Shown here: in pieces, positions 865 through 55,020 of the stretch | Numbering within the stretch: position 1 is the stretch's first letter | Layout of the letters: each line of letters starts with the position of its first letter | DNA from: Pseudomonas sp. | GTDB lineage: Bacteria > Pseudomonadota > Gammaproteobacteria > Pseudomonadales > Pseudomonadaceae | Direction of reading: 5' to 3' | DNA: 64,000 nt | Assembly: GCA_033720015.1 (NCBI GenBank) | Contig: JAWWDH010000001.1 | Span: 38,097 to 102,096, forward strand | Program-made: the position numbers and the translations under genes | Notes under the pieces: model-generated | Databases searched by the model: none | Told to the model about the DNA's origin: nothing | What the model saw: only the letters and a program-made list of their open reading frames with translations

Positions 865-1398
865 TCAAGTATTGAAGAGGCTGTCCCACCACCGGCGGAT
901 ACGAAGGGGGTGCTTTGCCGGTACTGGCGTGGTGACCGCTTGGTAAGCTGCCATCAGCGCCGGCTCCTTTACGAGCATACGGTAGACGCACAGGTTGGCG
1001 TCTGGAGTTGGTTTATCCAGGGAATACCCATGGTACCGATTGAGGTACATGGCCACGGCCGCGCTGCGTGACCGGCCAGCCTGGCAGTTGATCACGATGT
1101 CCTGACTGGCCGCCGCCAGCTCATCGAGCCGCCGCCTGAGGGCATCCGCTTTGTGCGCCAGGAAGTAGTCGGCATAGTGCCGCTCGAAGTCGCTGCCGTA
1201 GATCTCAAGCACATCCTCATCGAACCCAGCATCAACAAAGTGATGGAAGCTAACGCTGGCCCAGCGGGATTCATCGACCTGGATCTGATCGTCCCTGTCG
1301 TCGGATATAGAGATCAGGTGACAGAAAGCCGGTGGCGTGATGCTTAGTACCTCCCAGCGAGACAGGTAGTCACACACAGGCCCGCTAGCTAGTGGCAT
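865..1398 (-). CDS. Protein-tyrosine/dual-specificity phosphatase-like protein
   Basis: CX5R motif VINCQAGRSRSAAVA. Confidence 0.75.
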   Translation of the reverse strand: MPLASGPVCDYLSRWEVLSITPPAFCHLISISDDRDDQIQVDESRWASVSFHHFVDAGFDEDVLEIYGSDFERHYADYFLAHKADALRRRLDELAAASQDIVINCQAGRSRSAAVAMYLNRYHGYSLDKPTPDANLCVYRMLVKEPALMAAYQAVTTPVPAKHPLRIRRWWDSLFNT

Positions 1399-1401
1399 TG
1401 A

Positions 1402-1989
1402 TCAGCCCTCCCAGAACGCTCGTGCCTCAAGGTCCAGCCACAGCAGATCGCTTCCGATCTCTACCGGCCGAAAGCCCAGTGCCGCATAGCGTATCGCCGC
1501 CTTGTTTGCCGCTGCTGGCGTTTCCATGTCCGACTGCCCTAGCTGCAGGAAAGCCCGGGATACACCGCTGGATAGGCCCATCAGGGCCGTTCGGATTGCC
1601 TCGTGCTCTACTCGGGTACCCTTGAACTCGTCGCGTAGTTCGATGCCATGCAACAACACGGTGTCACGGTGCATGCCGCCTTCCAGGGGGTTATTTTCTG
1701 CCTCGTTTTCAAAGATCCCATAGATGAATGCAGCGATGGCGCTATGTGAATCTGCGACAAATGCAGGTTCCACTCCAAGGTTCAACGCGGCGTCAAAGCG
1801 GAACAGGCTGGCGGTCAAGCTGCCAACCTTGGTCGGGATTGCCCAGTTGTCGTCATCGACTTCCCCAACCAGGGCGAGGATATCCATGCGGTACTGCCGC
1901 TCGATGTCGTCGTAGATCGCTCCCGCGGGGTCGCAGTTCAGCTCGAACTCCGACCGCGCAGACAGCTTGGCAAACCGGGCTTCAGTCAT
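1402..1989 (-). CDS. Hypothetical protein, possible GNAT-fold acetyltransferase
   Basis: IELRDEFKGTRV and RYAALGFRPV resemble GNAT motifs A and B; tightly coupled to neighbouring genes. Confidence 0.45.
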   Translation of the reverse strand: MTEARFAKLSARSEFELNCDPAGAIYDDIERQYRMDILALVGEVDDDNWAIPTKVGSLTASLFRFDAALNLGVEPAFVADSHSAIAAFIYGIFENEAENNPLEGGMHRDTVLLHGIELRDEFKGTRVEHEAIRTALMGLSSGVSRAFLQLGQSDMETPAAANKAAIRYAALGFRPVEIGSDLLWLDLEARAFWEG

Positions 1990-5661: not shown

Positions 5662-7073
5662 TTGGCTTGTTCCTCTGTTGTCCTCACCCGAACAACATCA
5701 TCGGCAAAGGTCAGGCTCAGTTCCCCGGCGGCTACGGCCTGGCCGGCGCTGGTGACGATATCGCCCTGTGCGTCACGCACCAGGGCAAAGCCCCGACCGA
5801 GCAACGCAAGCGGGTTGGTCTTTTCGTATAGCATGCTGGCCATCTCCAGTTGGCTGCGGTCACGCACTACCCGGGCCTGGCCGGCAGACTTCGCCCGCCC
5901 GCCGGCCAGCAGGATCTGCTGACGCTGGCCGGCACAGAACTGCCGACCCAGCATCCCCAGGTCAGCTGCACGCCGATCAAGCAGCAGGCGCTGGCCACTG
6001 AGTAGCCGCCCCACCGCGACATCCACCCGACCCCGAGCCTGCAACGCAATCTGCTGCTGCCGATGGGTCAAGCCCCTCACCAGCCGGGAAAACTCACCCC
6101 ACCGCCTCTCAAGCAACGGCCGCTCACCCGCTGCCAAGGACAGAATCTTGGCCTTCCCTGCCTGCAGCCCGGTACGAAGCCCCGTTGCCTCAGCTATCAG
6201 GCTGGTCTTGATGAACCCGATGACCTTGGAGGGGGTGTCGAACTTGCGGTGCGCCACCAGGTCAAGCAGGCACTCGTCGATCTCGTGGCCAATCCCGGTG
6301 TAGACCGGGATCGGTAGCCGGCATACCCAGGCCCCAAGGTTGCCGTCATTCAGGTGCGCCAGATCCGCCTTGGCCCCGCCGCCGCGGATGATGCACACCG
6401 CATCGTAAGGATCGCCCTGGTGACGCTCATGCACCGCCCGCATCGCCGTCCGAATTGACTCCGAGGTGTCTTTCCCCTGGAAGGTGGCCGAGAAGTAGTC
6501 GAAGCGACACACACCCGCGTCATCAAGCAGCTGGGCGTCGCGTTTGAAGTCCGCAAGACCGGCTGCCTCGTGGGGCGAGATCACCGCAATACGCCAGTGC
6601 CCACCAGGAGCAGGCAGCTTGCGCTGCAGCTCGAACCAACCCTTGCTTTTCAGGGAGTGAATTATCTCCTGCAGCTTGGCCTGCATGTCGCCCAGGGTGT
6701 AGCTCGGGTCAAGACCAGTGGCATTGAGCGAGAAGCCGTACTGAGGCGACAGCTCTGCCCTGACCTTGATCAGTACCCTCATGCCGGCCTCTGGGAGGCC
6801 GCCAGTGACGTTTTTCCACTCAGCCATCACCTTGCCCGCCAAATTGGCGAACATCGTCACCTTGGCCTTGGCTACCTCCTTACCGGCCTCAGACTCGAGG
6901 ATGTCCATGTAGACATGGCCGTTTGCCCGCAGCTTGAAGTCGGAAAGCTCGGCTATAACCCAGCAACTATCAGGCATCGCCAGCTTGATCGCCTTCGATA
7001 CCTGCTTGAGGTAGGCACTGAGCGTCAGGTGCTCGCTATTGGCCACCAGCTGCCCTGCGACGGCATTCATCAC
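5658..7073 (-). CDS. xseA: Exodeoxyribonuclease VII large subunit
   Basis: N-terminal OB fold (WVIAELSDF...NGHVY), IAVISP, CIIRGGG..DLAHLND, VYTGIGHEIDECLLDLVA, DTPS, C-terminal P..LL.RGFALV. Confidence 0.9.
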   Translation of the reverse strand: MMNAVAGQLVANSEHLTLSAYLKQVSKAIKLAMPDSCWVIAELSDFKLRANGHVYMDILESEAGKEVAKAKVTMFANLAGKVMAEWKNVTGGLPEAGMRVLIKVRAELSPQYGFSLNATGLDPSYTLGDMQAKLQEIIHSLKSKGWFELQRKLPAPGGHWRIAVISPHEAAGLADFKRDAQLLDDAGVCRFDYFSATFQGKDTSESIRTAMRAVHERHQGDPYDAVCIIRGGGAKADLAHLNDGNLGAWVCRLPIPVYTGIGHEIDECLLDLVAHRKFDTPSKVIGFIKTSLIAEATGLRTGLQAGKAKILSLAAGERPLLERRWGEFSRLVRGLTHRQQQIALQARGRVDVAVGRLLSGQRLLLDRRAADLGMLGRQFCAGQRQQILLAGGRAKSAGQARVVRDRSQLEMASMLYEKTNPLALLGRGFALVRDAQGDIVTSAGQAVAAGELSLTFADDVVRVRTTEEQAN

Positions 7074-9864: not shown

Positions 9865-10112
9865 TGGTTGCTGGGTTTGAGCTTTCTAAGAAACGCCGGA
9901 TTCAGGAAATCTTCTAAGTTACTTTCTAAGCTACTTTCTAAGTGACCTTCTAAGCTACGCATTGAAGCTTTGAACTTGGCTGCAACCCGCATGGTTGCTG
10001 GCCTACAGCTTTCTAAGGGAGCTGCTGGCTTGGAAATCTTCTAGGCTACTTTCTAAGTGACTTTCTAACCTACCTTCTAAATGAGCGGCCGAGCTGCGTA
10101 GCGGCTTCTAAA
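9865..10112. repeat. Iteron/centromere-like array: TTCTAAG-type cores at 12-bp period within two 127-bp units
   Basis: Cores at 9884, 9912, 9924, 9936, 9948 and 10011, 10039, 10051, 10063, 10075 (+127), extra at 10106; TGGTTGCTGG at 9865 and 9992. Confidence 0.9.
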
Positions 10113-10124
10113 ACACGCCGCAAT

Positions 10125-10709
10125 CTATCTGCAGCCCCCGTCATTACTGACTTCCAGACCTTCTAAAGAAGCGACGAAGGCCTCTGACCGTAGGGCTTCA
10201 CCGGCGGCGAGCACTCCCGAGCACTCCTCGATGACTTTCCGGGATCTTTCGAGGCTGTAGAGCATGGCCCGCTTCTGTAAACGGTTGTCGTTGCCTGCCT
10301 TGCGTATTGATCCAAGCAGGCGCTCGTAGTGGATCGCGATTTGCCTCAGCTCGGTAGGAAGTGACGTGAAGGTGCTGGCCGGATAGGTGTTGCCCGCTCC
10401 TTTGGGGAGTTCCTTGGTGATGCAGTCGCCCGCCTTGGGTGCCCTGCCACCCCGAAGCTTGCTGGCAGCGGCTAGAGCCTTATCTGAGTCCTTGACCTTG
10501 ATCTTCTTGCTCCAGGCAGCGACCCAGCAGCCAGGCGTTTTGACCCGAACCGTGATCAGCATGTGTGCATGGAGCTTCTTGTCTGGGTTATGAGCAATGG
10601 CCCAGTTGGCATGGGCAAGGTAAGCGGCCGCAACATTCATGGCCTGCTTGTAGAGCTCCGCGTAATGCTCATCCAGCACACATCCGATGGTGAGGGTCTT
10701 CTTGGTCAT
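10125..10709 (-). CDS. mobI: MobI-like relaxosome accessory protein
   Basis: Pattern L.EHY..L...A...; VRVK; W; KG.GNTYP..TF; YER.L..IR resembles MobI(A/C); divergent from parM as in SXT/IncC. Confidence 0.65.
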   Translation of the reverse strand: MTKKTLTIGCVLDEHYAELYKQAMNVAAAYLAHANWAIAHNPDKKLHAHMLITVRVKTPGCWVAAWSKKIKVKDSDKALAAASKLRGGRAPKAGDCITKELPKGAGNTYPASTFTSLPTELRQIAIHYERLLGSIRKAGNDNRLQKRAMLYSLERSRKVIEECSGVLAAGEALRSEAFVASLEGLEVSNDGGCR

Positions 10710-11053
10710 GACCAGCTTCCGGCTTCAAATCCGGGGATCATGGCAGGCGTTTGCGCCCTCTACGGGCCTAATCTGACAATTTTCTTGCAGGTTTAGAAGC
10801 CATTTACCTTTTCGAGCCCTGGATAATCGCCCCGAGTGTCGGCATGCGTCCGTTTTGGCAACTCATGGCAGCAGGTTGGCCTTATTGGTCAACTACAGGG
10901 CAGTTAAGGTCTCGCTGATTGCCATCTTCGATCCGTTTTGGCAGCGCCACGGGCTTGGGTTCTCGGATTTGCATGTCTCAATGGGCTGTGAAGGTGCGAA
11001 GAAGCACCGTTCGAACCCCCTCTGGAAGGGGTTATCTTTGATGGAGTGGTGAT
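10710..11053. promoter_or_regulatory. Putative oriT and divergent promoter region
   Basis: Intergenic between divergent mobI and parM, the oriT position in SXT/R391 and IncC; 12-bp direct repeat TCCGTTTTGGCA at 10849 and 10932. Confidence 0.6.
10773..10791 (-). promoter_or_regulatory. Transfer-regulon box (degenerate) upstream of mobI
   Basis: CTGACAA-TTTTC-TTGCAGG; -10-like CATGAT 31-36 nt downstream; 63 nt to ATG. Confidence 0.55.
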
Positions 11054-12034
11054 ATGGCGAACTTTTTGGGGCTGGATATTGGCTACAGCAATGTGATTGG
11101 GGTGTTTGGCGATGGTGTAGATCAGTACGAAACCATTGTGCGGCCTTCACAGGCCGCCCCTCTGGACACGATTCCGGGCGATTCCGGGCTGCGGGCTGGC
11201 GAGGTGCTGGTTGAAGTTGACGGTGTGCAGTGGGTGGCCTTTGCGGCCCCTGGCCGCGTGCAGGAGGGCCGTGAGTTGCATCAGGACTATACCCAGTCGC
11301 CAGCATATAAGGCCCTATTCCGTGGTGCGCTGCTGCATGCTGCTGGTGATAGCGATGTAATTGATGTTCTGGTTACCGGATTGCCTGTTTCTCAGTCGCG
11401 GGACGATAAGTACGTTCAGGGTCTTATCGAGACAATGAAGGGGGCGCATCAAGTTACCCCCAAGCGATGCATCGAAGTGAAATCGGTTGTGGTTGTGGCT
11501 CAGCCAATTGGTACGCTGACCGATATTTATTGCTCATCTGAACATGCTGATGTTGTTGAAGAGTCGGTTTCGCTGATTATTGATCCGGGCTTCTTTAGCG
11601 TTGACTGGGTTCTGTTCGACCATAAAGAGCTAGTCGCACAATCAAGCTCCAGTAGCGTTAAGGCTATGAGCGTTCTGCTTCAGGCCTGCAATGAGGAAAT
11701 TGCTAAAGATCACGGTGGCATCCCTGGCGTTGAGAAGATTGAGCACGCCCTTCAGACTGGCAAGACATTTATTCTTATGTTTGGTCGCAAGGTAGAGCTT
11801 GCTGAATACATGAAGCGCGCGGCTGATCGTGTAGTGCCAGGGGTATTTACCGAAATCAAACAGACGCTACGCTTTCTCAAAGGGCGAGCCGTAGACTGCG
11901 TTATTCTTGGTGGTGGCGGTGCTAATGTTTATGAAGGCTATGCAAAGGTGGAATTTCCCGAGTCACTCGTTATCAAGCCTTCCGATAGCGTGAAGAGTAA
12001 TGCGGTTGGCTTTTACAATATCGCAGCCTCTTAA
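11054..12034 (+). CDS. parM: ParM/StbA actin-like partition ATPase (SrpM-like)
   Basis: LGLDIGYSN phosphate-1; LVTGLP; AQPIG; IIDPGFFSVD; LGGGGA. Confidence 0.9.
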   Translation: MANFLGLDIGYSNVIGVFGDGVDQYETIVRPSQAAPLDTIPGDSGLRAGEVLVEVDGVQWVAFAAPGRVQEGRELHQDYTQSPAYKALFRGALLHAAGDSDVIDVLVTGLPVSQSRDDKYVQGLIETMKGAHQVTPKRCIEVKSVVVVAQPIGTLTDIYCSSEHADVVEESVSLIIDPGFFSVDWVLFDHKELVAQSSSSSVKAMSVLLQACNEEIAKDHGGIPGVEKIEHALQTGKTFILMFGRKVELAEYMKRAADRVVPGVFTEIKQTLRFLKGRAVDCVILGGGGANVYEGYAKVEFPESLVIKPSDSVKSNAVGFYNIAAS

Positions 12035-12077
12035 AGTTTATTCAGGAGCGCCTCAAAATGAGGCGCTAAGGACATAT

Positions 12078-12350
12078 ATGCGTTTCCAAGTGAGAGTTGG
12101 TGAGCAATACCAAGAGCTACTTGAGCATCTTGAAGGCTTTAAGCCTGAGTATAGAGGCAAGCGGCTACTTGCTTTGGCTGCGATGCAGTTGAGTTCGGTA
12201 TCATTTAAAAACACGAATTCTTTAGGAGTTGTGGAAACCCCTGCCTCGGAGTCGGAGGAAGCCAGTCATACGGCAGCAGAAAATACACCCGCAGGACCTC
12301 CTAAAAGACGTTCAGCCCCTAACTGGATTAAGAGTAATACCAATGCTTAA
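12078..12350 (+). CDS. ParR/StbB-like DNA-binding adaptor (SrpR-like)
   Basis: Small protein after parM; AAGGA RBS; beta-strand/helix N-terminus and low-complexity tail. Confidence 0.6.
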   Translation: MRFQVRVGEQYQELLEHLEGFKPEYRGKRLLALAAMQLSSVSFKNTNSLGVVETPASESEEASHTAAENTPAGPPKRRSAPNWIKSNTNA

Positions 12351-12906
12351 CCAGGGACGCATTGTCGCAGTATTGTTGTTGGCTGGGCTGGCGAATACCG
12401 TTGCGGCATTCTCGCTTCAGGGGACAATGTGGGAGCGCGCTTCGAAGGCAAGCTCATGCAATGCGCCAGCCTTGTTGCTTTACTCAATAGCGCTTCAGGA
12501 ATCTCGCTCATCTGCCGGGGAAGGGCTCGTTCGCCCGCACCCATTTGCACTTAGGAATGAGCCCAGCGGTTCGAAATACCCTTCCTCAAAGGGCGAGGCT
12601 GTTGCACTCCTGCCTAAGTATATTGCGGAAGACAAGTTGACTGACATCGGAATGATGCAGATTAACTATCATTGGAACGGTAACAGGGTCAGCAAGCCAG
12701 AGCTGTTGCTTAATCCAGAGACAAATATTAAGGTTGCCGCTGATATTCTCTGCGAAGCAATCGCGGCGAAACGTGGTGATTTGGAGCTAGGCATAGGGGG
12801 TTATCATACCCTTAACCCTAAGCGTGAAATCGATGCCCGCACCTATGCACGAAACGTCCTATATATTTGGCGTGCTCTGCAGAGACTGGAGAGGCAGGGA
12901 GGCTAG
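12343..12906 (+). CDS. Lytic transglycosylase (SLT domain)
   Basis: Signal peptide; IALQES catalytic Glu; GMMQIN; L.PETNI..AA.IL; IGGYH. Confidence 0.9.
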   Translation: MLNQGRIVAVLLLAGLANTVAAFSLQGTMWERASKASSCNAPALLLYSIALQESRSSAGEGLVRPHPFALRNEPSGSKYPSSKGEAVALLPKYIAEDKLTDIGMMQINYHWNGNRVSKPELLLNPETNIKVAADILCEAIAAKRGDLELGIGGYHTLNPKREIDARTYARNVLYIWRALQRLERQGG

Positions 12907-12911
12907 TTCGG

Positions 12912-13940
12912 ATGTATGCACTGAATAGCGCTTTGGTTCAAATGACACTGCGGCGAATTGTCCTTAACGGGGATTCTAAGTTTAGCGCAGTGCTGGCTGA
13001 GCAACGGATCGGTTCCAAGGATCTAATGTGGCTTCAACTCCTCAATCGGAAGAAGCTTGAGGCGATTGACAAGCTCCCTGTATCCCTCTTCCGGATCTTC
13101 TACAGGACGATGGATATCGGCCGCTCCGGGCTCGATGACGATGTGTTCGAGAGCGCCTGCATTCGGCTTTCCATGATCATGGAAACGGTGGCCTTTGCTG
13201 TCACCAACAGGGCTAATTCTCTCATCTCAATCGGGTTTGATATGGAGGGGTTTGACAGGTTCCGAGCAGAGCCTTTCGCTCGCCGTCTCATGTTGATCCA
13301 GAAAGGTGGCTTCAGTCTGGGTACCCGCTGCAACCTTGCCTCTCTTGAGCTACGATCGGACGACCCTAGCAGTCAGTTGCGTGACTGCCTGCGCATCATC
13401 CTGGGAGACTATCGGTTCCTCCTGATCAATCGGCCGAAACATCTCGGCCGCATCCGGGATTGGAATGCTGAAATGATGGGGGCTGAAGCTATCGCTCACA
13501 ACCTCCTTTCAGATGGGGTGACCCCGAAGCTCGTTATCGCGCATGTAGGGTTGCCGCATAAGGTCAACAGCATTCACCGCAAGCTCCGTAGGGAGCAGGC
13601 GGTAATGCCGAAGGGAGGCGGTCGGATCGGCAGTCACACCGGTACTATTCAGCGCAATGCCCACCACTCTCTCCTTTTCATGGCTATCTACCTAATGCTC
13701 GCCAATGAGCCGATTGTGAGCATCAACGGCTTCGGGGTATCAAGGGCGCTGCATGAATACCGTCAGATTTGTGCCTACCTTGGCATTCACGAAGACGACA
13801 TGCTCGACGCCTCCGATTGCTGGCTCCTGGCCTCAGGTTACCGGGCTCAGGAGGTTGGCATAGAGGAATGCAAGTTGTGCAAGAACATCACTATCATCGA
13901 CAGGCGAAAGCCATGCGGATGTCCATGGTGTCAAAAATAG
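12912..13940 (+). CDS. FlhC-family transcriptional activator, apparently fused to an FlhD-like N-terminal half (AcaDC/SetDC-like)
   Basis: C-terminal LDASDCWLL and CKLC...CPWC zinc site; 342 aa; directly after the SLT gene, where acaDC/setDC sit. Confidence 0.7.
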   Translation: MYALNSALVQMTLRRIVLNGDSKFSAVLAEQRIGSKDLMWLQLLNRKKLEAIDKLPVSLFRIFYRTMDIGRSGLDDDVFESACIRLSMIMETVAFAVTNRANSLISIGFDMEGFDRFRAEPFARRLMLIQKGGFSLGTRCNLASLELRSDDPSSQLRDCLRIILGDYRFLLINRPKHLGRIRDWNAEMMGAEAIAHNLLSDGVTPKLVIAHVGLPHKVNSIHRKLRREQAVMPKGGGRIGSHTGTIQRNAHHSLLFMAIYLMLANEPIVSINGFGVSRALHEYRQICAYLGIHEDDMLDASDCWLLASGYRAQEVGIEECKLCKNITIIDRRKPCGCPWCQK

Positions 13941-13945
13941 GTTTG

Positions 13946-13971
13946 AGCCTCGCGATGTCGGGGCTTTTTTT
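13946..13971 (+). terminator. Intrinsic terminator
   Basis: GC-rich hairpin followed by a T7 run after the activator gene. Confidence 0.7.
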
Positions 13972-14069
13972 CCCGTCCAGGAAAGCGGTTTCGTAGCGCC
14001 GCGGGGTCGCTTGGGTTACTGCCGGGTCATGGGATGATGTAGACATGAAACTGATTGATGAGGTGATGT

Positions 14070-14429
14070 ATGGCTAACAACGACAAGGTCCAGTGCAAGT
14101 GCTGTGGGATGATGATGGTTCCGAAGACGATCTTCAGCCCCGGTATTTACGGTGGTTGGGGTTGGCGTATCGGTGGCGGTCGGCCGGTGTCGAACTGCTG
14201 CCCTTTCTGCTTGAGTGAGAGCTGGGATGGTGCGGCAACGGACGTTCGGACATCGACATGGTACCGCGCTGTAGCGCTTATCCTTTCCTTCGTTTGTCTG
14301 TTGGGCGGTTTTGCGATTCTTGGGTTCCTCAACGAGCAATTTTTCTCCGGAGGTTTGCCAGGGATACTGGCGCTTCTTCCCATTGCTGGTTCAATTTATT
14401 TTGCGTGGCGGTTTACGAAGGTGAGCTAA
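14070..14429 (+). CDS. Small inner-membrane protein with CxxC pairs; candidate entry-exclusion protein
   Basis: CKCC...CCPFC, two C-terminal TM helices, convergent with traG. Confidence 0.5.
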   Translation: MANNDKVQCKCCGMMMVPKTIFSPGIYGGWGWRIGGGRPVSNCCPFCLSESWDGAATDVRTSTWYRAVALILSFVCLLGGFAILGFLNEQFFSGGLPGILALLPIAGSIYFAWRFTKVS

Positions 14430-19815: not shown

Positions 19816-19834
19816 CCGACCAGTTTTTGGTAGG
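19816..19834 (-). promoter_or_regulatory. Transfer-regulon box upstream of traF
   Basis: CCGACCA-GTTTT-TGGTAGG; -10-like CAAAAT 31-36 nt downstream. Confidence 0.75.
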
Positions 19835-22326: not shown

Positions 22327-22345
22327 CTGACCAGAATCTGGTCGA
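22327..22345 (+). promoter_or_regulatory. Transfer-regulon box upstream of the acaB-like gene
   Basis: CTGACCA-GAATC-TGGTCGA; 66 nt to ATG 22412. Confidence 0.75.
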
Positions 22346-22411: not shown

Positions 22412-23071
22412 ATGGCCGTCAAGCCCGTAACCAGCGATGCACCCTACTCGACCGCGATCATGAAGCGGAAGATCACATTTCAGACCGAGGAAGCCAAAAG
22501 CTTCCTGGGCAACAAAATGGACAACATTGCTGTTGCCCTATTCATCCTCGACGTGATCTCTCGCAAGCGGATCGCTCGACTGAACCTCAGTACCAAAGAC
22601 CACAAGGCGGCATCCAAGGCGCTGAACAAGCTCTTTACCGACTTCGAAAAAGAAATCCAGGACGAAACCACTCGCCTGGAAGCTGTGCTGAAAGCACAGA
22701 AAATCCAGGGCCGGGCTGAGCACAACAACCCTGGAAGCTACGAGGTGGAAATTACCACCCCAGAACTGAAGCGCGCCGTTGATCTGCTGCTGGCCTTCGA
22801 CAACCTGATCGTCCTGGTCGATACCGTTTGGCTGATGGGCATCATGGAAACCGATGTCGCAAACCAGTTCCGCGCCACCAAGGCAGGCCAGATCAAGCGC
22901 CTCTTCGGTTCTGTCTACAAGCTCAGCCAGGCCGCCAAGCAGAGCGCCTTCGTTAAGGATGACGCCGATACACAGGCCGTTATTGCCCGTGAAGAGAAAA
23001 AGTTGGAACCGCAGGAAGAGCAGCCGGCGGCGGCTGAACCTCAACCTGCCGACTCCCAAGACGCGGCCTGA
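22412..23071 (+). CDS. acaB: AcaB / DUF1845-family transcriptional regulator
   Basis: KITFQTEEAK; IAVALFILDVI; VEITTP; FDNLI..VDTVWLMG. Confidence 0.7.
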   Translation: MAVKPVTSDAPYSTAIMKRKITFQTEEAKSFLGNKMDNIAVALFILDVISRKRIARLNLSTKDHKAASKALNKLFTDFEKEIQDETTRLEAVLKAQKIQGRAEHNNPGSYEVEITTPELKRAVDLLLAFDNLIVLVDTVWLMGIMETDVANQFRATKAGQIKRLFGSVYKLSQAAKQSAFVKDDADTQAVIAREEKKLEPQEEQPAAAEPQPADSQDAA

Positions 23072-30247: not shown

Positions 30248-30266
30248 CTGACAACAATCTGGTCAG
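30248..30266 (-). promoter_or_regulatory. Transfer-regulon box upstream of dsbC-traC, embedded in the traA terminator hairpin
   Basis: CTGACAA-CAATC-TGGTCAG inside AGGCCTCTTA...AAGAGGCCT; -10-like TATCCT 31-36 nt downstream. Confidence 0.75.
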
Positions 30267-35900: not shown

Positions 35901-38900
35901 CTTCACCATGCCCTCGCTGGTCAGAACCGCACAGGCATTGCCAGCAGATTCGAAACGAATTTCCGCGGGCTCGATGGCCTGACGAACCTCCCAGCGAGAA
36001 GAGGAGAGTTGGCCTTTCGGAGCCCAGGCATGCACCGGCACCGGGTAAACCGGACCGCTCATGTCGGCACGGGACAGGTAGACCTGGGCCATGCCGTCGA
36101 CACCAACATTCAGACCAGCTAGGCGTGCTTCAAGGTAGCCGGCGGTACGTTTGGTTGGGGTCAAGCGCATGCCGATCTCGGGGGCTAGATCTCGGCTTTC
36201 CAGTTTCACTCCCACAGGGGAGTCTGGGGTAACCACTGCGATGATGTCATCACCTAGCGCCTCTACCACGGCTGCGTCGGTGAGCTGTAGTGCGTAGCTG
36301 CCATCGCGGCGCGTCATAAAGGTCGTCACCGCGGGAACAGACGCTTCTGCACCGCTTGGCTGAACCGCCCTACCCTCGAACATGCCCCAGGCAGACTCGA
36401 ATTTCAGGAGGATATTTTTCTCCAAGGTGAGGCCATCTTGATCCGTCGCCTTGATGCGAACCGAAGTGTCGGCGTCATCGTCGGTTCTGATCGTCAGGGT
36501 ATTGCCGTCGATAGTCGCGCTGCCATGGGCCGGCTGGCCGATAACGCTGAGCTGGTGGCTACCCCAAGTATTCGGGTCAACAACCTGCAGCTCGGCGGTA
36601 CCACCGATGCCCGCATACAGGGTCACCACGCCAGGCACTATGTCGATCGGGGCATAGTTGAACTTGGCCACCTCCACGCGCACTTCACCTTCGACACTCG
36701 CGCCGGCCTTGTCAGTGGCGCGGATGATGAAGGCGTCATTACCGAAGAACTGCGGATATGGGGTGTACTCCAGCATGCCGTGGACAAGCTGGGCCGACCC
36801 TTTAGCAGGCTGCGAGACGATCTCGAAGGTGTGCTCATCACCATAAGGAAGGTCTGCATCGACTACCCAGGGCTCAACATGGTCGCTGGCCATCCCCTCC
36901 TTGGTTGGGATCGTAGCCCCGGTTGCGTCCGGCGTATCATTGACATAGGTGACCTCGAGGGTGATCGGCTCAACCTCCGACCAAGCGCCCTCAGAGTCCA
37001 TCGCTCGGTAGGTAAGCGTGAGCTGTCCATTCCAGTCCTCGGTAGGGGTAATAGTCAGTTTGTCACCTTGAAGGGTGTACTTCCCTTCTTCCTCCTCAAG
37101 CGTGCCTATGATCTCAAACTCGAACGGAGCTGCACTGTCCACGTCTGCGGCAGTGAGCGTTACGACCAATTCTGTGTCCTCCGGCATCGTCAGGGTGAGC
37201 GGTGACACCACGGGCGCATCGTTGACCGGATTCACTGTGATTGTGATGGTCGCGGTATTGGAGTTGGCATTCTTCGAGTCGGTGGCCCGATAGGTCAGCG
37301 TGGTCGTGCCATTCCAGTCCTTCACTGGGGTGAAGGTCAGCTTGTTGCCGGCGATGCTCGCCGTGCCATGGGCGGCGTTCGGCGCAGTGACGATGGCCCA
37401 GGTATGGCTGTCACCCTCGAACTGCAGATCCACGTCAGTGACCTGCAGTTCGAGGGTGCCCACGGTGTCTTCATCGATCACCAGGGTTGCATTGCTTACC
37501 GAGGGCACATCGTTGACCGGGGTAACGGTCAACGTCACGGTCGCGGTGTTCGAGTTGGCCGTGCCGTCATTGGCCCGGTAGGTGAAGCTGGTGGTGCCGT
37601 TCCAGTTCGGCTTGGGCGTGAAGGTGGCCTTGTTGCCACTGATCGTCACGGTGCCGTGGGCGCTATTCGGGGCGGTCACAACACCATAAGTCAGGCTGTC
37701 GCTGTCCACGTCGCTGGCAACCAGGGTCACCGTGGCGGCGGTATCTTCTGCAACCGTCAGGCTGCCATTGCTGGCAACTGGTGCATCGTTGACCGGATTC
37801 ACTGTGATGGTGATGGTCGCGGTGTTGGAGTTCACATTCTTCGAGTCGGAGGCCCGATAGGTCAGCGTGGTCGTGCCATTCCAGTCCTTCACTGGGGTGA
37901 AGGTCAGCTTGTTGCCGGCGATGCTCACCGTGCCGTGGGCGGCGTTAGGCGCGGTGATGATGCTCCAGGTATGGCTGTCGCCCTCGAACTGTAGATCCAC
38001 GTCCGTAACCTGCAGGGTCAGGGTGCCAACCGTGTCTTCGTTGACCGTCAACGTCGCGTTGCTCACCGAGGGCGCATCGTTCACCGGGGTGACGGTTACG
38101 CTGATCGTCGCGGTGTTGGAATTGGCCGTTCCATCATTGGCTCTGTAGGTGAAGCTGGTCGTGCCGTTCCAGTTGGGCTTGGGCGTGAAGGTGGCTTTGT
38201 TACCGCTGATCGTCACGGTGCCGTGGGCGCTATTCGGCGCAGTCACAACGCCATAGGTCAGGCTGTCGCCATCCACGTCGCTGGCAACCAGGGTCACCGT
38301 TCCGGCGGTGTCTTCAATAACCGTCAAGGTGCCATTGCTTGCAACTGGGACGGTATTATTTGGAACGCTTTCGCAAAGGGGGCCATAGGATACGCTGCCT
38401 GCTGTCCATGCCGCACCACTACCCATAGAGTATAATTTGCCATTCCTATAGATTGTAAAATTCAAGTAAGAGCCATGAACGTCCTCTTTGTACACTCCAC
38501 CTACATAGGTCTTTGTTGAAAATTTCACTCCGTCAAAATGACCAAAAACACCCCCGTGTTTTCCTGGCTCAGATTTACAATTTAAAATCCAATCGGATCT
38601 GTCAATAGATGATTCAACACAAAGCTCGTATTCATTAATGGTCAGTCCATACATGGTGGCTGATTTTACAAACTTCCCCCGTGAGAATTTTGCCACTGGT
38701 GTAGACATCGACTTCAATACCATGCTGGAGCCTTGATCATATACTTTGGAACTGACATAGTTGTCAGTATCCATGATTTGTTGCCCTGCATAAACTATAT
38801 GATTGCCAGGAACCATAACGCCAGAACTCCAAACCAACATATTTGCACCGTTATACGAGCAAACAAATGCTGCCATTGAGCTTCCGGAAAAACCAAATAA

Positions 38901-42038: not shown

Positions 42039-42057
42039 CTGACCACTTTTTTGTCGA
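42039..42057 (-). promoter_or_regulatory. Transfer-regulon box upstream of traK
   Basis: CTGACCA-CTTTT-TTGTCGA; -10-like GAAAAT 31-36 nt downstream; 64 nt to ATG. Confidence 0.75.
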
Positions 42058-43858: not shown

Positions 43859-43877
43859 CCGACCAGATTTTGGTCGG
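43859..43877 (-). promoter_or_regulatory. Transfer-regulon box (perfect arms) upstream of the dsbA-like/traL/traE unit
   Basis: CCGACCA-GATTT-TGGTCGG; -10-like CACACT 31-36 nt downstream. Confidence 0.8.
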
Positions 43878-49222: not shown

Positions 49223-49241
49223 CCGACCAGATTTTGGTAAT
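49223..49241 (-). promoter_or_regulatory. Transfer-regulon box upstream of traI
   Basis: CCGACCA-GATTT-TGGTAAT; -10-like GATCAT 31-36 nt downstream; 64 nt to ATG. Confidence 0.8.
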
Positions 49242-54350: not shown

Positions 54351-54369
54351 CTGACCAATTTCTTGCACA
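54351..54369 (+). promoter_or_regulatory. Transfer-regulon box (degenerate) upstream of the lipoprotein-DsbA operon
   Basis: CTGACCA-ATTTC-TTGCACA, nearly identical to the mobI copy; -10-like CAGAAT 31-36 nt downstream; 66 nt to ATG. Confidence 0.6.
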
Positions 54370-54435: not shown

Positions 54436-55020
54436 ATGCCATTCGTTCGCTCGCTCCTGCCAGTAGCGCTCGCTGCCGGCGTTGCTGTGCTAACCGGCTG
54501 CTCCAGTATGGACAAAGCCCCCGCCCAGCCGGAGTTGACCGGCACGCCCTTCGAAGTGAGCGCCTTCGCGCCTGACATGCGCGATCATCACACCAGCTGG
54601 GGCCACTCGGGCCGCGGCGGTGCTGCCCTGCGCAAACCGGCCTACCAGCCTGTCCTGGGTAGCCCAGATGCTCTGGAAACGCGATACGGCAAGCTCCACC
54701 CTGAGCTTCAGTACAAGGCTCAGGATGTCACCGCCTCCATCAGCGTGCCACCGTCCCTGGTAGCCAGCACTTGCCCGCAGGCCGCGGACGAGGCCAAGAC
54801 GCCAGTAACCGTCATGACCCCGGCTGAAACTGCCGAAAGCCACAGTATCTACACCCTCGCCAACAGCAAAGGCACCGTCAACGACTACATCCAGGTGCGC
54901 AACAAGCTCTGCAAGGGGGCCGAACGGCTCACCTACGAGGAATGGGAGATCCTCGTCATGGGCACTCCGAAGGATGTTCCGTTGCGCCTGCAACCCACCC
55001 TCTTGAACCAGGTCAGGTGA
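54436..55020 (+). CDS. Lipoprotein of unknown function
   Basis: Lipobox LTGC; GAGG RBS. Confidence 0.75.
   Translation: MPFVRSLLPVALAAGVAVLTGCSSMDKAPAQPELTGTPFEVSAFAPDMRDHHTSWGHSGRGGAALRKPAYQPVLGSPDALETRYGKLHPELQYKAQDVTASISVPPSLVASTCPQAADEAKTPVTVMTPAETAESHSIYTLANSKGTVNDYIQVRNKLCKGAERLTYEEWEILVMGTPKDVPLRLQPTLLNQVR

Follow-up and report, generated by a model that had tools for sequence, protein, structure and literature searches.

The stretch of DNA analyzed here, hereafter the window, comprises the whole 64,000 nucleotides (nt) between positions 38,097 and 102,096 of contig JAWWDH010000001.1 (GenBank assembly GCA_033720015.1) from a Pseudomonas sp., and carries the transfer genes of a MOBH/MPF_F conjugative plasmid. 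Directly downstream of a gene for an SLT lytic transglycosylase, a single open reading frame (ORF) on the forward strand (12912–13940, as delimited by the ORF and its translation) begins with ATG and encodes 342 amino acids (aa) plus a stop codon. Its N-terminal half (residues 1 to ~172; 12912–13427) corresponds to the D subunit, and its C-terminal half (residues ~187–342; 13470–13937) to the C subunit, of a class of two-gene activators of conjugation. We propose, with a probability of roughly 0.72, that the product of this ORF controls the conjugative transfer genes of the plasmid as their master transcriptional activator and is a natural fusion of subunits that are encoded separately in related MOBH/MPF_F elements, namely AcaD and AcaC, SetD and SetC, and Orf247 and Orf246 of Rts1. 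The fusion is well supported, and a function in activation would follow by analogy with these counterparts. The protein is thus a natural one-chain version of a known FlhDC-like regulator and not a new kind of system.

A single gene for a D and a C subunit

When 1.84 billion cluster representatives were scanned in full, 23 clusters proved to be related to the activator, and 12 of these were full length (340–359 aa) at 19–51% identity. Nearer homologs were 61–77% identical, and a homolog search by word index reached near relatives of the query only. Plasmid records covering at least 80% of the protein numbered 23, including the complete plasmid pCAR1, and full-length homologs (20–77% identity) were distributed among IncP-7/pCAR1-type, Stutzerimonas, Azotobacter, and marine MOBH plasmids. 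Two members of the pCAR1-type set were named ‘FlhC family transcriptional regulator’ by NCBI. Most orthologs were annotated as ‘hypothetical protein’, and identification of the fusion therefore also improves their annotation.

An indel in a fragmented assembly could join adjacent D and C genes into one artefactual ORF, which is a concern given that the genome is a draft (697 contigs) and that database entries for some relatives contain frameshifts or truncations (e.g., P0021 and P0049). However, the same uninterrupted architecture was found in independent complete plasmids and in metagenomes, down to ~20% identity. Moreover, two residues of the linker that joins the halves (G179 and D183) were invariant, and a model of the protein generated with AlphaFold2 (AF2) from a 25-sequence alignment, with an overall predicted local distance difference test (pLDDT) of 89.7 and a predicted template modeling score (pTM) of 0.90, was confident across the proposed junction (pLDDT 84–91 at residues 170–200). 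Since the full length is conserved at 20–77% identity across plasmids, sequence comparison indicates that the ORF is real, and we regard an assembly artefact as extremely improbable.

The C halves of the fused proteins formed one clade among FlhC-like proteins (96 in the Shimodaira–Hasegawa-like approximate likelihood ratio test, SH-aLRT), and on this basis the fused clade is consistent with one old fusion event. Shorter homologs (P0021, P0025, P0028, P0048, and P0049) were considered as a natural D/C split within this clade and were rejected as frameshifted or truncated calls. An internal duplication of the activator was likewise ruled out, with the N half matching the C half at a probability of 0.05%. 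A TTG start codon at 12867 was unsupported because all homologs align from Met1 and was dropped in favor of the ATG at 12912, which is preceded by GGAGG ~10 nt upstream. A distant marine branch (~20% identity) was also observed on Rep3/ParAB plasmids from Tara and other metagenomes, with the single fused gene located right after the SLT gene and beside mobI (positions 7001–8059 on contigs L031–L033).

The C half was delimited by Foldseek, by the profile of the activator family, and by hhalign. Foldseek aligned ~150 columns of this half to FlhC with a probability of 1.00 (8j56_C, E 3e-3, target-normalized TM-score (TMt) 0.72; 2avu_E, TMt 0.70), and the family profile matched the same PDB chains (8j56_C, E 1.3e-5; 2avu_E, E 6e-3). 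Alignment with hhalign covered the whole half (154 columns) against C subunits of the AcaC, AqaC, and IncT types (probability 99.5%, E 3e-23) and yielded a probability of 99.1% against Pseudomonas-type C subunits. Four cysteines (C320, C323, C337, and C340; 13869–13931, forward strand) comprise a Cys4 zinc-ribbon cluster, of which C320 and C337 were invariant while C323 and C340 were conserved at 90% or more in the family alignment; all are within the stretch aligned to the part of FlhC (2avu_E residues 70–160) in which its CxxC...CxxC motifs are located. The Pfam FlhC model (PF05280) matched 11 of the 23 relatives at E ≤ 1. Given the fold match, the profile matches, and the conserved cysteines, residues ~187–342 constitute an entire C subunit of the FlhC type, including its Cys4 zinc site. 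A preliminary description of the ORF, made from the sequence alone, had recognized an FlhC-type zinc-binding C-terminus, and these results bear it out. At the start of the C half, a methionine was retained (Met188–Met189 in the window, 13473–13478) in several members of the window/pCAR1 branch and not in the marine branch; it may represent either the remnant of the start codon of an ancestral C gene or an internal start site.

The N half was related to stand-alone D proteins by profile comparison. Against four such proteins from Pseudomonas megaplasmids, hhalign returned a probability of 97.9% (E 6e-13) over 161 collinear columns (residues 3–168 versus 1–166), and against an eight-sequence D profile that included the IncT/Rts1 Orf247 type it returned 95.7% (E 1e-8). 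The IncT-type set alone yielded P 0.18. Neither BLASTP nor single-sequence hhalign matched the activator to AcaD or to the IncT D protein, and the homology was detectable only with D profiles built from four to eight sequences. Controls, in which the C half was compared to D and the N half to C, gave ~0.1%. The alignment to D stopped near residues 168–172 and that to stand-alone C proteins began at residues 189–196, which leaves a linker of ~15 residues (~173–186; 13428–13469) that contains the invariant G179 and D183. Because the N half matches D profiles and the C half matches C profiles, while the controls do not, sequence evidence indicates that the activator is a D–C fusion with a short linker. 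The proposal in the preliminary description that one ORF is the single-chain equivalent of the two-gene SetCD/AcaCD activator is upheld by the presence of both matches in one chain.

Gene order points in the same direction. In split MOBH/MPF_F relatives (IncC, IncT, pAQU-like, Citrobacter, Pseudoalteromonas, and Pseudomonas plasmids), the SLT gene was followed by a D gene (161–206 aa, annotated as ‘hypothetical’) and then by an FlhC-family C gene (163–262 aa), with D and C often overlapping. The D proteins comprised 202 aa in IncC (AcaD), 174 aa in IncT/Rts1-like, 193 aa in pAQU-like, and 161–170 aa in Pseudomonas megaplasmids. In the window, pCAR1, the Stutzerimonas stutzeri plasmid, and marine plasmids, the SLT gene was instead followed by one protein with the size of D plus C (340–352 aa). 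The ORF stands where MOBH plasmids, among them the IncC, IncT, and pAQU-like types, carry a D gene and a C gene, as the preliminary description had noted for SetCD and AcaCD. The SLT gene was immediately upstream of the D and C genes, or of the fused gene, in every relative examined. The fusion serves as a ‘Rosetta stone’: through it, D proteins of IncT and Pseudomonas plasmids that are poorly conserved and lack annotation can be tied to the FlhC-family proteins with which they partner. Some Pseudomonas megaplasmids were also observed to encode a third protein (125–145 aa) between D and C (L003:5556–5993 and L027:2006–2383), which is an FlhC-like paralog that lacks the zinc ribbon (E 0.012 with the Pfam FlhC model).

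Palindromic boxes upstream of transfer operons

A 19-bp palindrome, CYGACCA-N5-TGGTCRG with AT-rich flanks, was identified in eight copies upstream of transfer operons in the window and is a candidate operator. Copies preceded mobI (10773–10791, centered 73 nt from the start codon), traF (19816–19834, centered 66 nt from the start codon), a forward-strand ORF at 22412 (22327–22345), dsbC-traC (30248–30266), traK (42039–42057), dsbA-traL-traE (43859–43877), the relaxase gene (49223–49241), and a forward-strand ORF at 54436 (54351–54369). The copy upstream of dsbA-traL-traE is a perfect palindrome (CCGACCA-N5-TGGTCGG). Box centers were mostly 66–76 nt from start codons. When up to three mismatches were allowed, the pattern matched 19 times, compared to 9.6 matches expected by chance, a count that was not attained in any of 100 shuffles. 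Eight matches had at most two mismatches, and six of these belonged to the transfer-operon boxes; most of the matches at three mismatches are probably due to chance. The same box was present upstream of mobI and traF in the S. stutzeri plasmid (L002; traF counterpart at 12957).

Related boxes were present at corresponding promoters in other plasmids of the fused clade. In pCAR1, a conserved imperfect palindrome of ~27 bp (TTTYCMGAC...CCTGAAAA) was observed upstream of nine operons. This box (TTTYCMGAC...CCTGAAAACG) was located 55–75 nt upstream of mobI, mobH, trx-traL, traK, traA, dsbC, traF, and two others, in L024 (pCAR1 112000–161900) and at L001:3920–3950, and is a candidate operator of the transfer regulon. 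A first, strict version of the pCAR1 palindrome yielded only one further site, and the looser box was obtained by reading the promoters directly. In a marine plasmid (L032), a GCCAGAATCTGGC palindrome was detected at 6332–6344, 75 nt upstream of mobI.

Boxes of this kind might be bound by another plasmid protein, such as a KorB/ParB-like or ParR-like repressor, with the fused protein acting elsewhere or through other sites. As a strong palindrome, the box resembles a typical repressor operator. DNA-binding proteins, including ones with a KorB domain, are encoded on plasmids of the pCAR1 type, and in pCAR1 transcript levels of the transfer genes are low, with weak transcription of the transfer cluster overall (PMC2642839). 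Nevertheless, the boxes precede the same set of operons (traI, traL, dsbC, traF, and mobI) as the AcaCD/SetCD sites of related elements. In addition, the sequence of the box diverges between the window and pCAR1 clades, whose activators are 35% identical, and is kept in the S. stutzeri plasmid, whose activator is 63% identical, and the AcaCD motif shares the same 5-N5-5 layout of its palindromic core. Binding of the boxes by a different protein is therefore considered improbable, and we favor the fused activator as the protein that would recognize them.

The preliminary description had noted a palindromic box, and the box proved to be real, but its suggestion that a palindrome suits a fused activator in particular did not hold. 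FlhD4C2 is two-fold symmetric (PDB 2AVU), and because this is so and because the motifs of the two-gene AcaCD are palindrome-like as well, a palindrome cannot tell fused from split activators. The AcaCD motifs are of the TGCCC-N5-GGGCA type (PMC4207636).

Relationship of the D half to FlhD and proposed mechanism

The AF2 model of the N half comprised two repeats (residues ~1–69 and ~76–150) followed by a long helix (152–173). Helices at residues 4–18, 24–30, 35–42, and 46–53 and a strand at 61–63 were predicted in repeat 1, and helices at 76–98, 103–107, 111–119, and 122–131 and a strand at 135–137 in repeat 2. This order of four helices and a strand is one that we take to be that of the FlhD core. 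When hhalign was run with a D profile that merged the N half with stand-alone D proteins, repeat 1 aligned to FlhD residues 10–74 (64%, P 6.4e-5) and repeat 2 to residues 8–75 (43%, P 2.5e-4); both alignments were weak and collinear, and controls gave P 0.03–0.09. Among Foldseek matches to the N-half model, the FlhD chain 2avu_A was the sole match with TMt > 0.3 (0.52), with E 9.9, which is not significant, and with a root-mean-square deviation of 6.9 Å, compared to ~18 for other matches. Taken together, the profile alignments and the model make it likely that the D half comprises two tandem FlhD-like repeats. Of the FlhD-like N half proposed in the preliminary description, homology to D subunits (97.9 and 95.7%) has been borne out, whereas an FlhD fold is suggested. 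A D subunit of ~170 aa, probably with two FlhD-like repeats, is a better description of this half than one FlhD. The earlier reading of the ORF was largely right.

Tandem organization was more readily detected in the D proteins of the AcaD type. The Pfam FlhD model matched AcaD of IncC in two stretches (E 2e-7), and in hhalign comparisons the two repeats of AcaD-type D proteins matched an FlhD-superfamily alignment built from 13 genomes at 95.6 and 94.2% and matched each other at 96.4%. These sequence comparisons show clearly that D proteins of the AcaD type consist of two FlhD-like domains in tandem. A single AcaD would then be the equivalent of an FlhD dimer, and AcaD2C2 would therefore match FlhD4C2. 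The loci examined were L004:4354–4962 (IncC AcaD), L006:3391–3972, and L008:3360–3980; the published accounts consulted treat AcaD simply as ‘FlhD-like’. A 256-aa protein of genome G385 (L019, ORF 1102–1872, reverse strand) had a weak FlhD match and apparently two FlhD-like stretches, and may be a further tandem-D protein outside of the plasmid families studied.

Experimental work on the split counterparts provides the basis for a proposed mechanism. Each subunit of the AcaC and AcaD pair is essential, and the two co-purify and activate tra promoters (PMC4207636); Orf246 and Orf247 of Rts1 are positive regulators that are both required for efficient conjugation (PMC10838148), and SetCD and AcaCD are class II activators with a motif that overlaps the -35 element (PMC4542580). 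The activator gene of the window is probably co-transcribed at a low level with parM, the gene at the ParR position, and the SLT gene. In its product, the D half would form a tandem FlhD-like pair, i.e., a built-in ‘FlhD dimer’, that packs onto the C half within one chain, and two chains would pair via their C halves in the fashion of FlhD4C2. On the model of AcaCD and SetCD, the two-fold symmetric particle so formed would bind the 19-bp palindrome and its AT-rich flanks. From boxes centered mostly 66–76 nt upstream of start codons, the activator would overlap the -35 element and, like AcaCD and SetCD, recruit RNA polymerase in the class II mode. If so, this would be a one-gene, one-protein master switch for an entire conjugation regulon.

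Several results weigh against this interpretation. The activator alone scored below threshold against Pfam FlhC (PF05280; 13.4 bits versus a threshold of 27, E 0.068, residues 245–331) and, similarly, against the NCBIfam FlhC model PRK12722 (14.2 bits versus 216). Its function is read from homologs that are 20–30% identical in the C half and less so in the D half, and the pTM of 0.90 suggests, and does not prove, an intramolecular D–C interface. Three of the boxes are just 37–47 nt from the start codon of the longest ORF, possibly due to mis-called starts. The scores of the N half against FlhD are weak (hhalign 43–64%; Foldseek E 9.9), and the Pfam FlhD model (PF05247) matched neither the activator at E ≤ 10, nor any of the 23 relatives, nor any protein of the whole genome at E ≤ 1. 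Lastly, neither the N half nor the merged D profile matched AcaD-type D proteins significantly (P ~0.03).

The last of these results would also be expected if the fusion is real and its D half is not FlhD-like but a different partner domain in the role of FlhD, in which case ‘single-chain FlhD2–FlhC’ would be a wrong description. Consistent with this alternative, IncT-type and Pseudomonas-type D proteins matched FlhD with P values of only 0.5 and 0.05, respectively, the two repeats of the N half matched each other with a P of only 0.033, and no Foldseek match to the N half was significant. Yet each repeat aligned separately and collinearly to the FlhD core (residues 8–75) at P values far below those of the controls, the unit of four helices and a strand is present twice in the model, and 2avu_A stood alone among the structural matches. 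Moreover, AcaD-type D proteins of equal total size are demonstrably tandem FlhD repeats. An unrelated partner domain is therefore considered unlikely, if somewhat less so than binding of the boxes by another protein, and a D half with two FlhD-like repeats is preferred.

If FlhD-like repeats are present in all of these proteins, they may form a series of growing covalent linkage, from single-domain FlhD (D4C2) to the tandem D of plasmids (D2C2) to the D of IncP-7 and marine plasmids that is fused to C, with a homodimer as the equivalent of the hexamer. We would give even odds to this series. The stoichiometry of SetCD and AcaCD and the role of the D subunit are described only by analogy to FlhD4C2 (PMC8373056), and the series, if true, would settle the stoichiometry of activators of this type. 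A natural single-chain D–C protein would also be a handy object for the structural and biochemical study of the whole SetCD/AcaCD class.

Comparison with known systems and gene neighborhood

AcaCD of IncA/C plasmids, together with SetCD of SXT/R391 and AqaCD of pAQU1, is among the closest known systems. Like the gene in the window, the AcaCD genes follow an SLT gene and are close to mobI, parM/stbA, and traG on the same MOBH/MPF_F backbone; the C subunit is homologous to the C half (99.5%), the combined size of D and C (AcaD 202 aa plus AcaC 183 aa) is close to that of the activator, and a palindrome-like operator precedes the same transfer operons as the boxes. In contrast, AcaCD is a heteromer of two gene products whereas the activator of the window is one chain, AcaD has no detectable sequence similarity to the D half (P ~0.03), and the sequence of the AcaCD operator differs from the box. 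Furthermore, IncC plasmids have an adjacent gene for an Acr1-type helix-turn-helix or H-NS-like repressor; none adjoins the activator gene in the window, which instead is probably part of a parM–ParR–SLT operon.

The nearest split relatives were Orf247/Orf246 of Rts1 (IncT) and the D and C pairs of Pseudomonas megaplasmids (e.g., P. aeruginosa PA83 and P. mandelii JR-1 plasmids), which share the order SLT–D–C. The D proteins of the megaplasmids (161–170 aa) can be aligned over their whole length to the N half (97.9%) and their C proteins match the C half (99.1%), but D and C are separate and often overlapping genes rather than fused, the megaplasmid C proteins have an additional tail of ~100 aa when compared to the C half, and in some megaplasmids the additional FlhC-like gene, which is zinc-less, separates D from C.

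With the flagellar FlhD4C2 (PDB 2AVU and 8J56), the activator has in common the FlhC fold and the Cys4 zinc site of the C half. If the D half is two FlhD-like cores, a homodimer would probably reproduce the composition of four FlhD and two FlhC. The site of FlhD4C2 is much longer than the 19–27 bp of the operators in the window and in pCAR1. FlhD4C2 is a class II-type activator on an inverted-repeat operator (PMC4542580). FlhD4C2 is flagellar and multi-chain, whereas the activator of the window is not flagellar, comprises a single chain, and scores below Pfam thresholds; no Pfam FlhD or FlhC match was found in the host genome.

AcaCD, SetCD, SgaCD, and the Rts1 activators have been described in papers as two-gene heteromers, and a 2015 survey placed FlhDC-like activators in Enterobacteriaceae and Vibrionaceae only. 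In a literature search that covered part of the journals, we found no mention of a fused form or of a named transfer activator for IncP-7 (pCAR1). pCAR1 and other IncP-7 plasmids serve as models among the catabolic and resistance plasmids of Pseudomonas, and for them one gene and one operator are now a candidate transfer switch.

The gene order in the window is mobI (reverse strand), parM/stbA, a small ORF at the ParR position, the SLT gene, the activator gene, a small ORF with two transmembrane segments, and traG and traH (reverse strand). Specifically, mobI (10125–10709, reverse strand) is the upstream neighbor of parM/stbA (11054–12034, forward strand; Pfam ALP_N, E 1e-29), which is followed on the forward strand by the 116-aa ORF at the ParR position (12000–12350), packed tightly with the SLT and activator genes, and by the SLT gene (12343–12906; start inferred at 12343; Pfam SLT, E 1.9e-6), which adjoins the activator gene on its 5′ side and whose stop codon ends at 12906, just ahead of the activator ORF. 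A terminator-like hairpin with a T-run (13945–13975, forward strand) is directly downstream of the activator stop codon. The parM, small, SLT, and activator ORFs overlap or abut and probably form one operon. In pCAR1, the homologous stretch ORF154–150 was mapped as a single 3.5-kb transcription unit that is expressed at a low level (PMC2642839). The activator ortholog of pCAR1 has the locus tag HXC08_RS00890 and is apparently ORF151 of this unit. The order from mobI to traH is identical in the window, pCAR1 (IncP-7, MOBH, MPF_F), and S. stutzeri plasmids, and the activator orthologs of the latter two (35 and 63% identity, respectively) are both annotated as ‘hypothetical protein’.

Two further features were observed in this region. 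Downstream of the activator gene, a small protein encoded at 14070–14429 (forward strand), convergent with traG, had an N-terminal CxxC...CxxC motif, hydrophobic segments, and a weak match to a LITAF-like zinc ribbon (E 0.0076); its counterpart in pCAR1 is ORF150, which is within the transcription unit of the activator. Just past mobI, at 9893–10092, two blocks of TTCTAAG-core repeats with a spacing of 12 bp were located 127 bp apart and look like iterons or a centromere.

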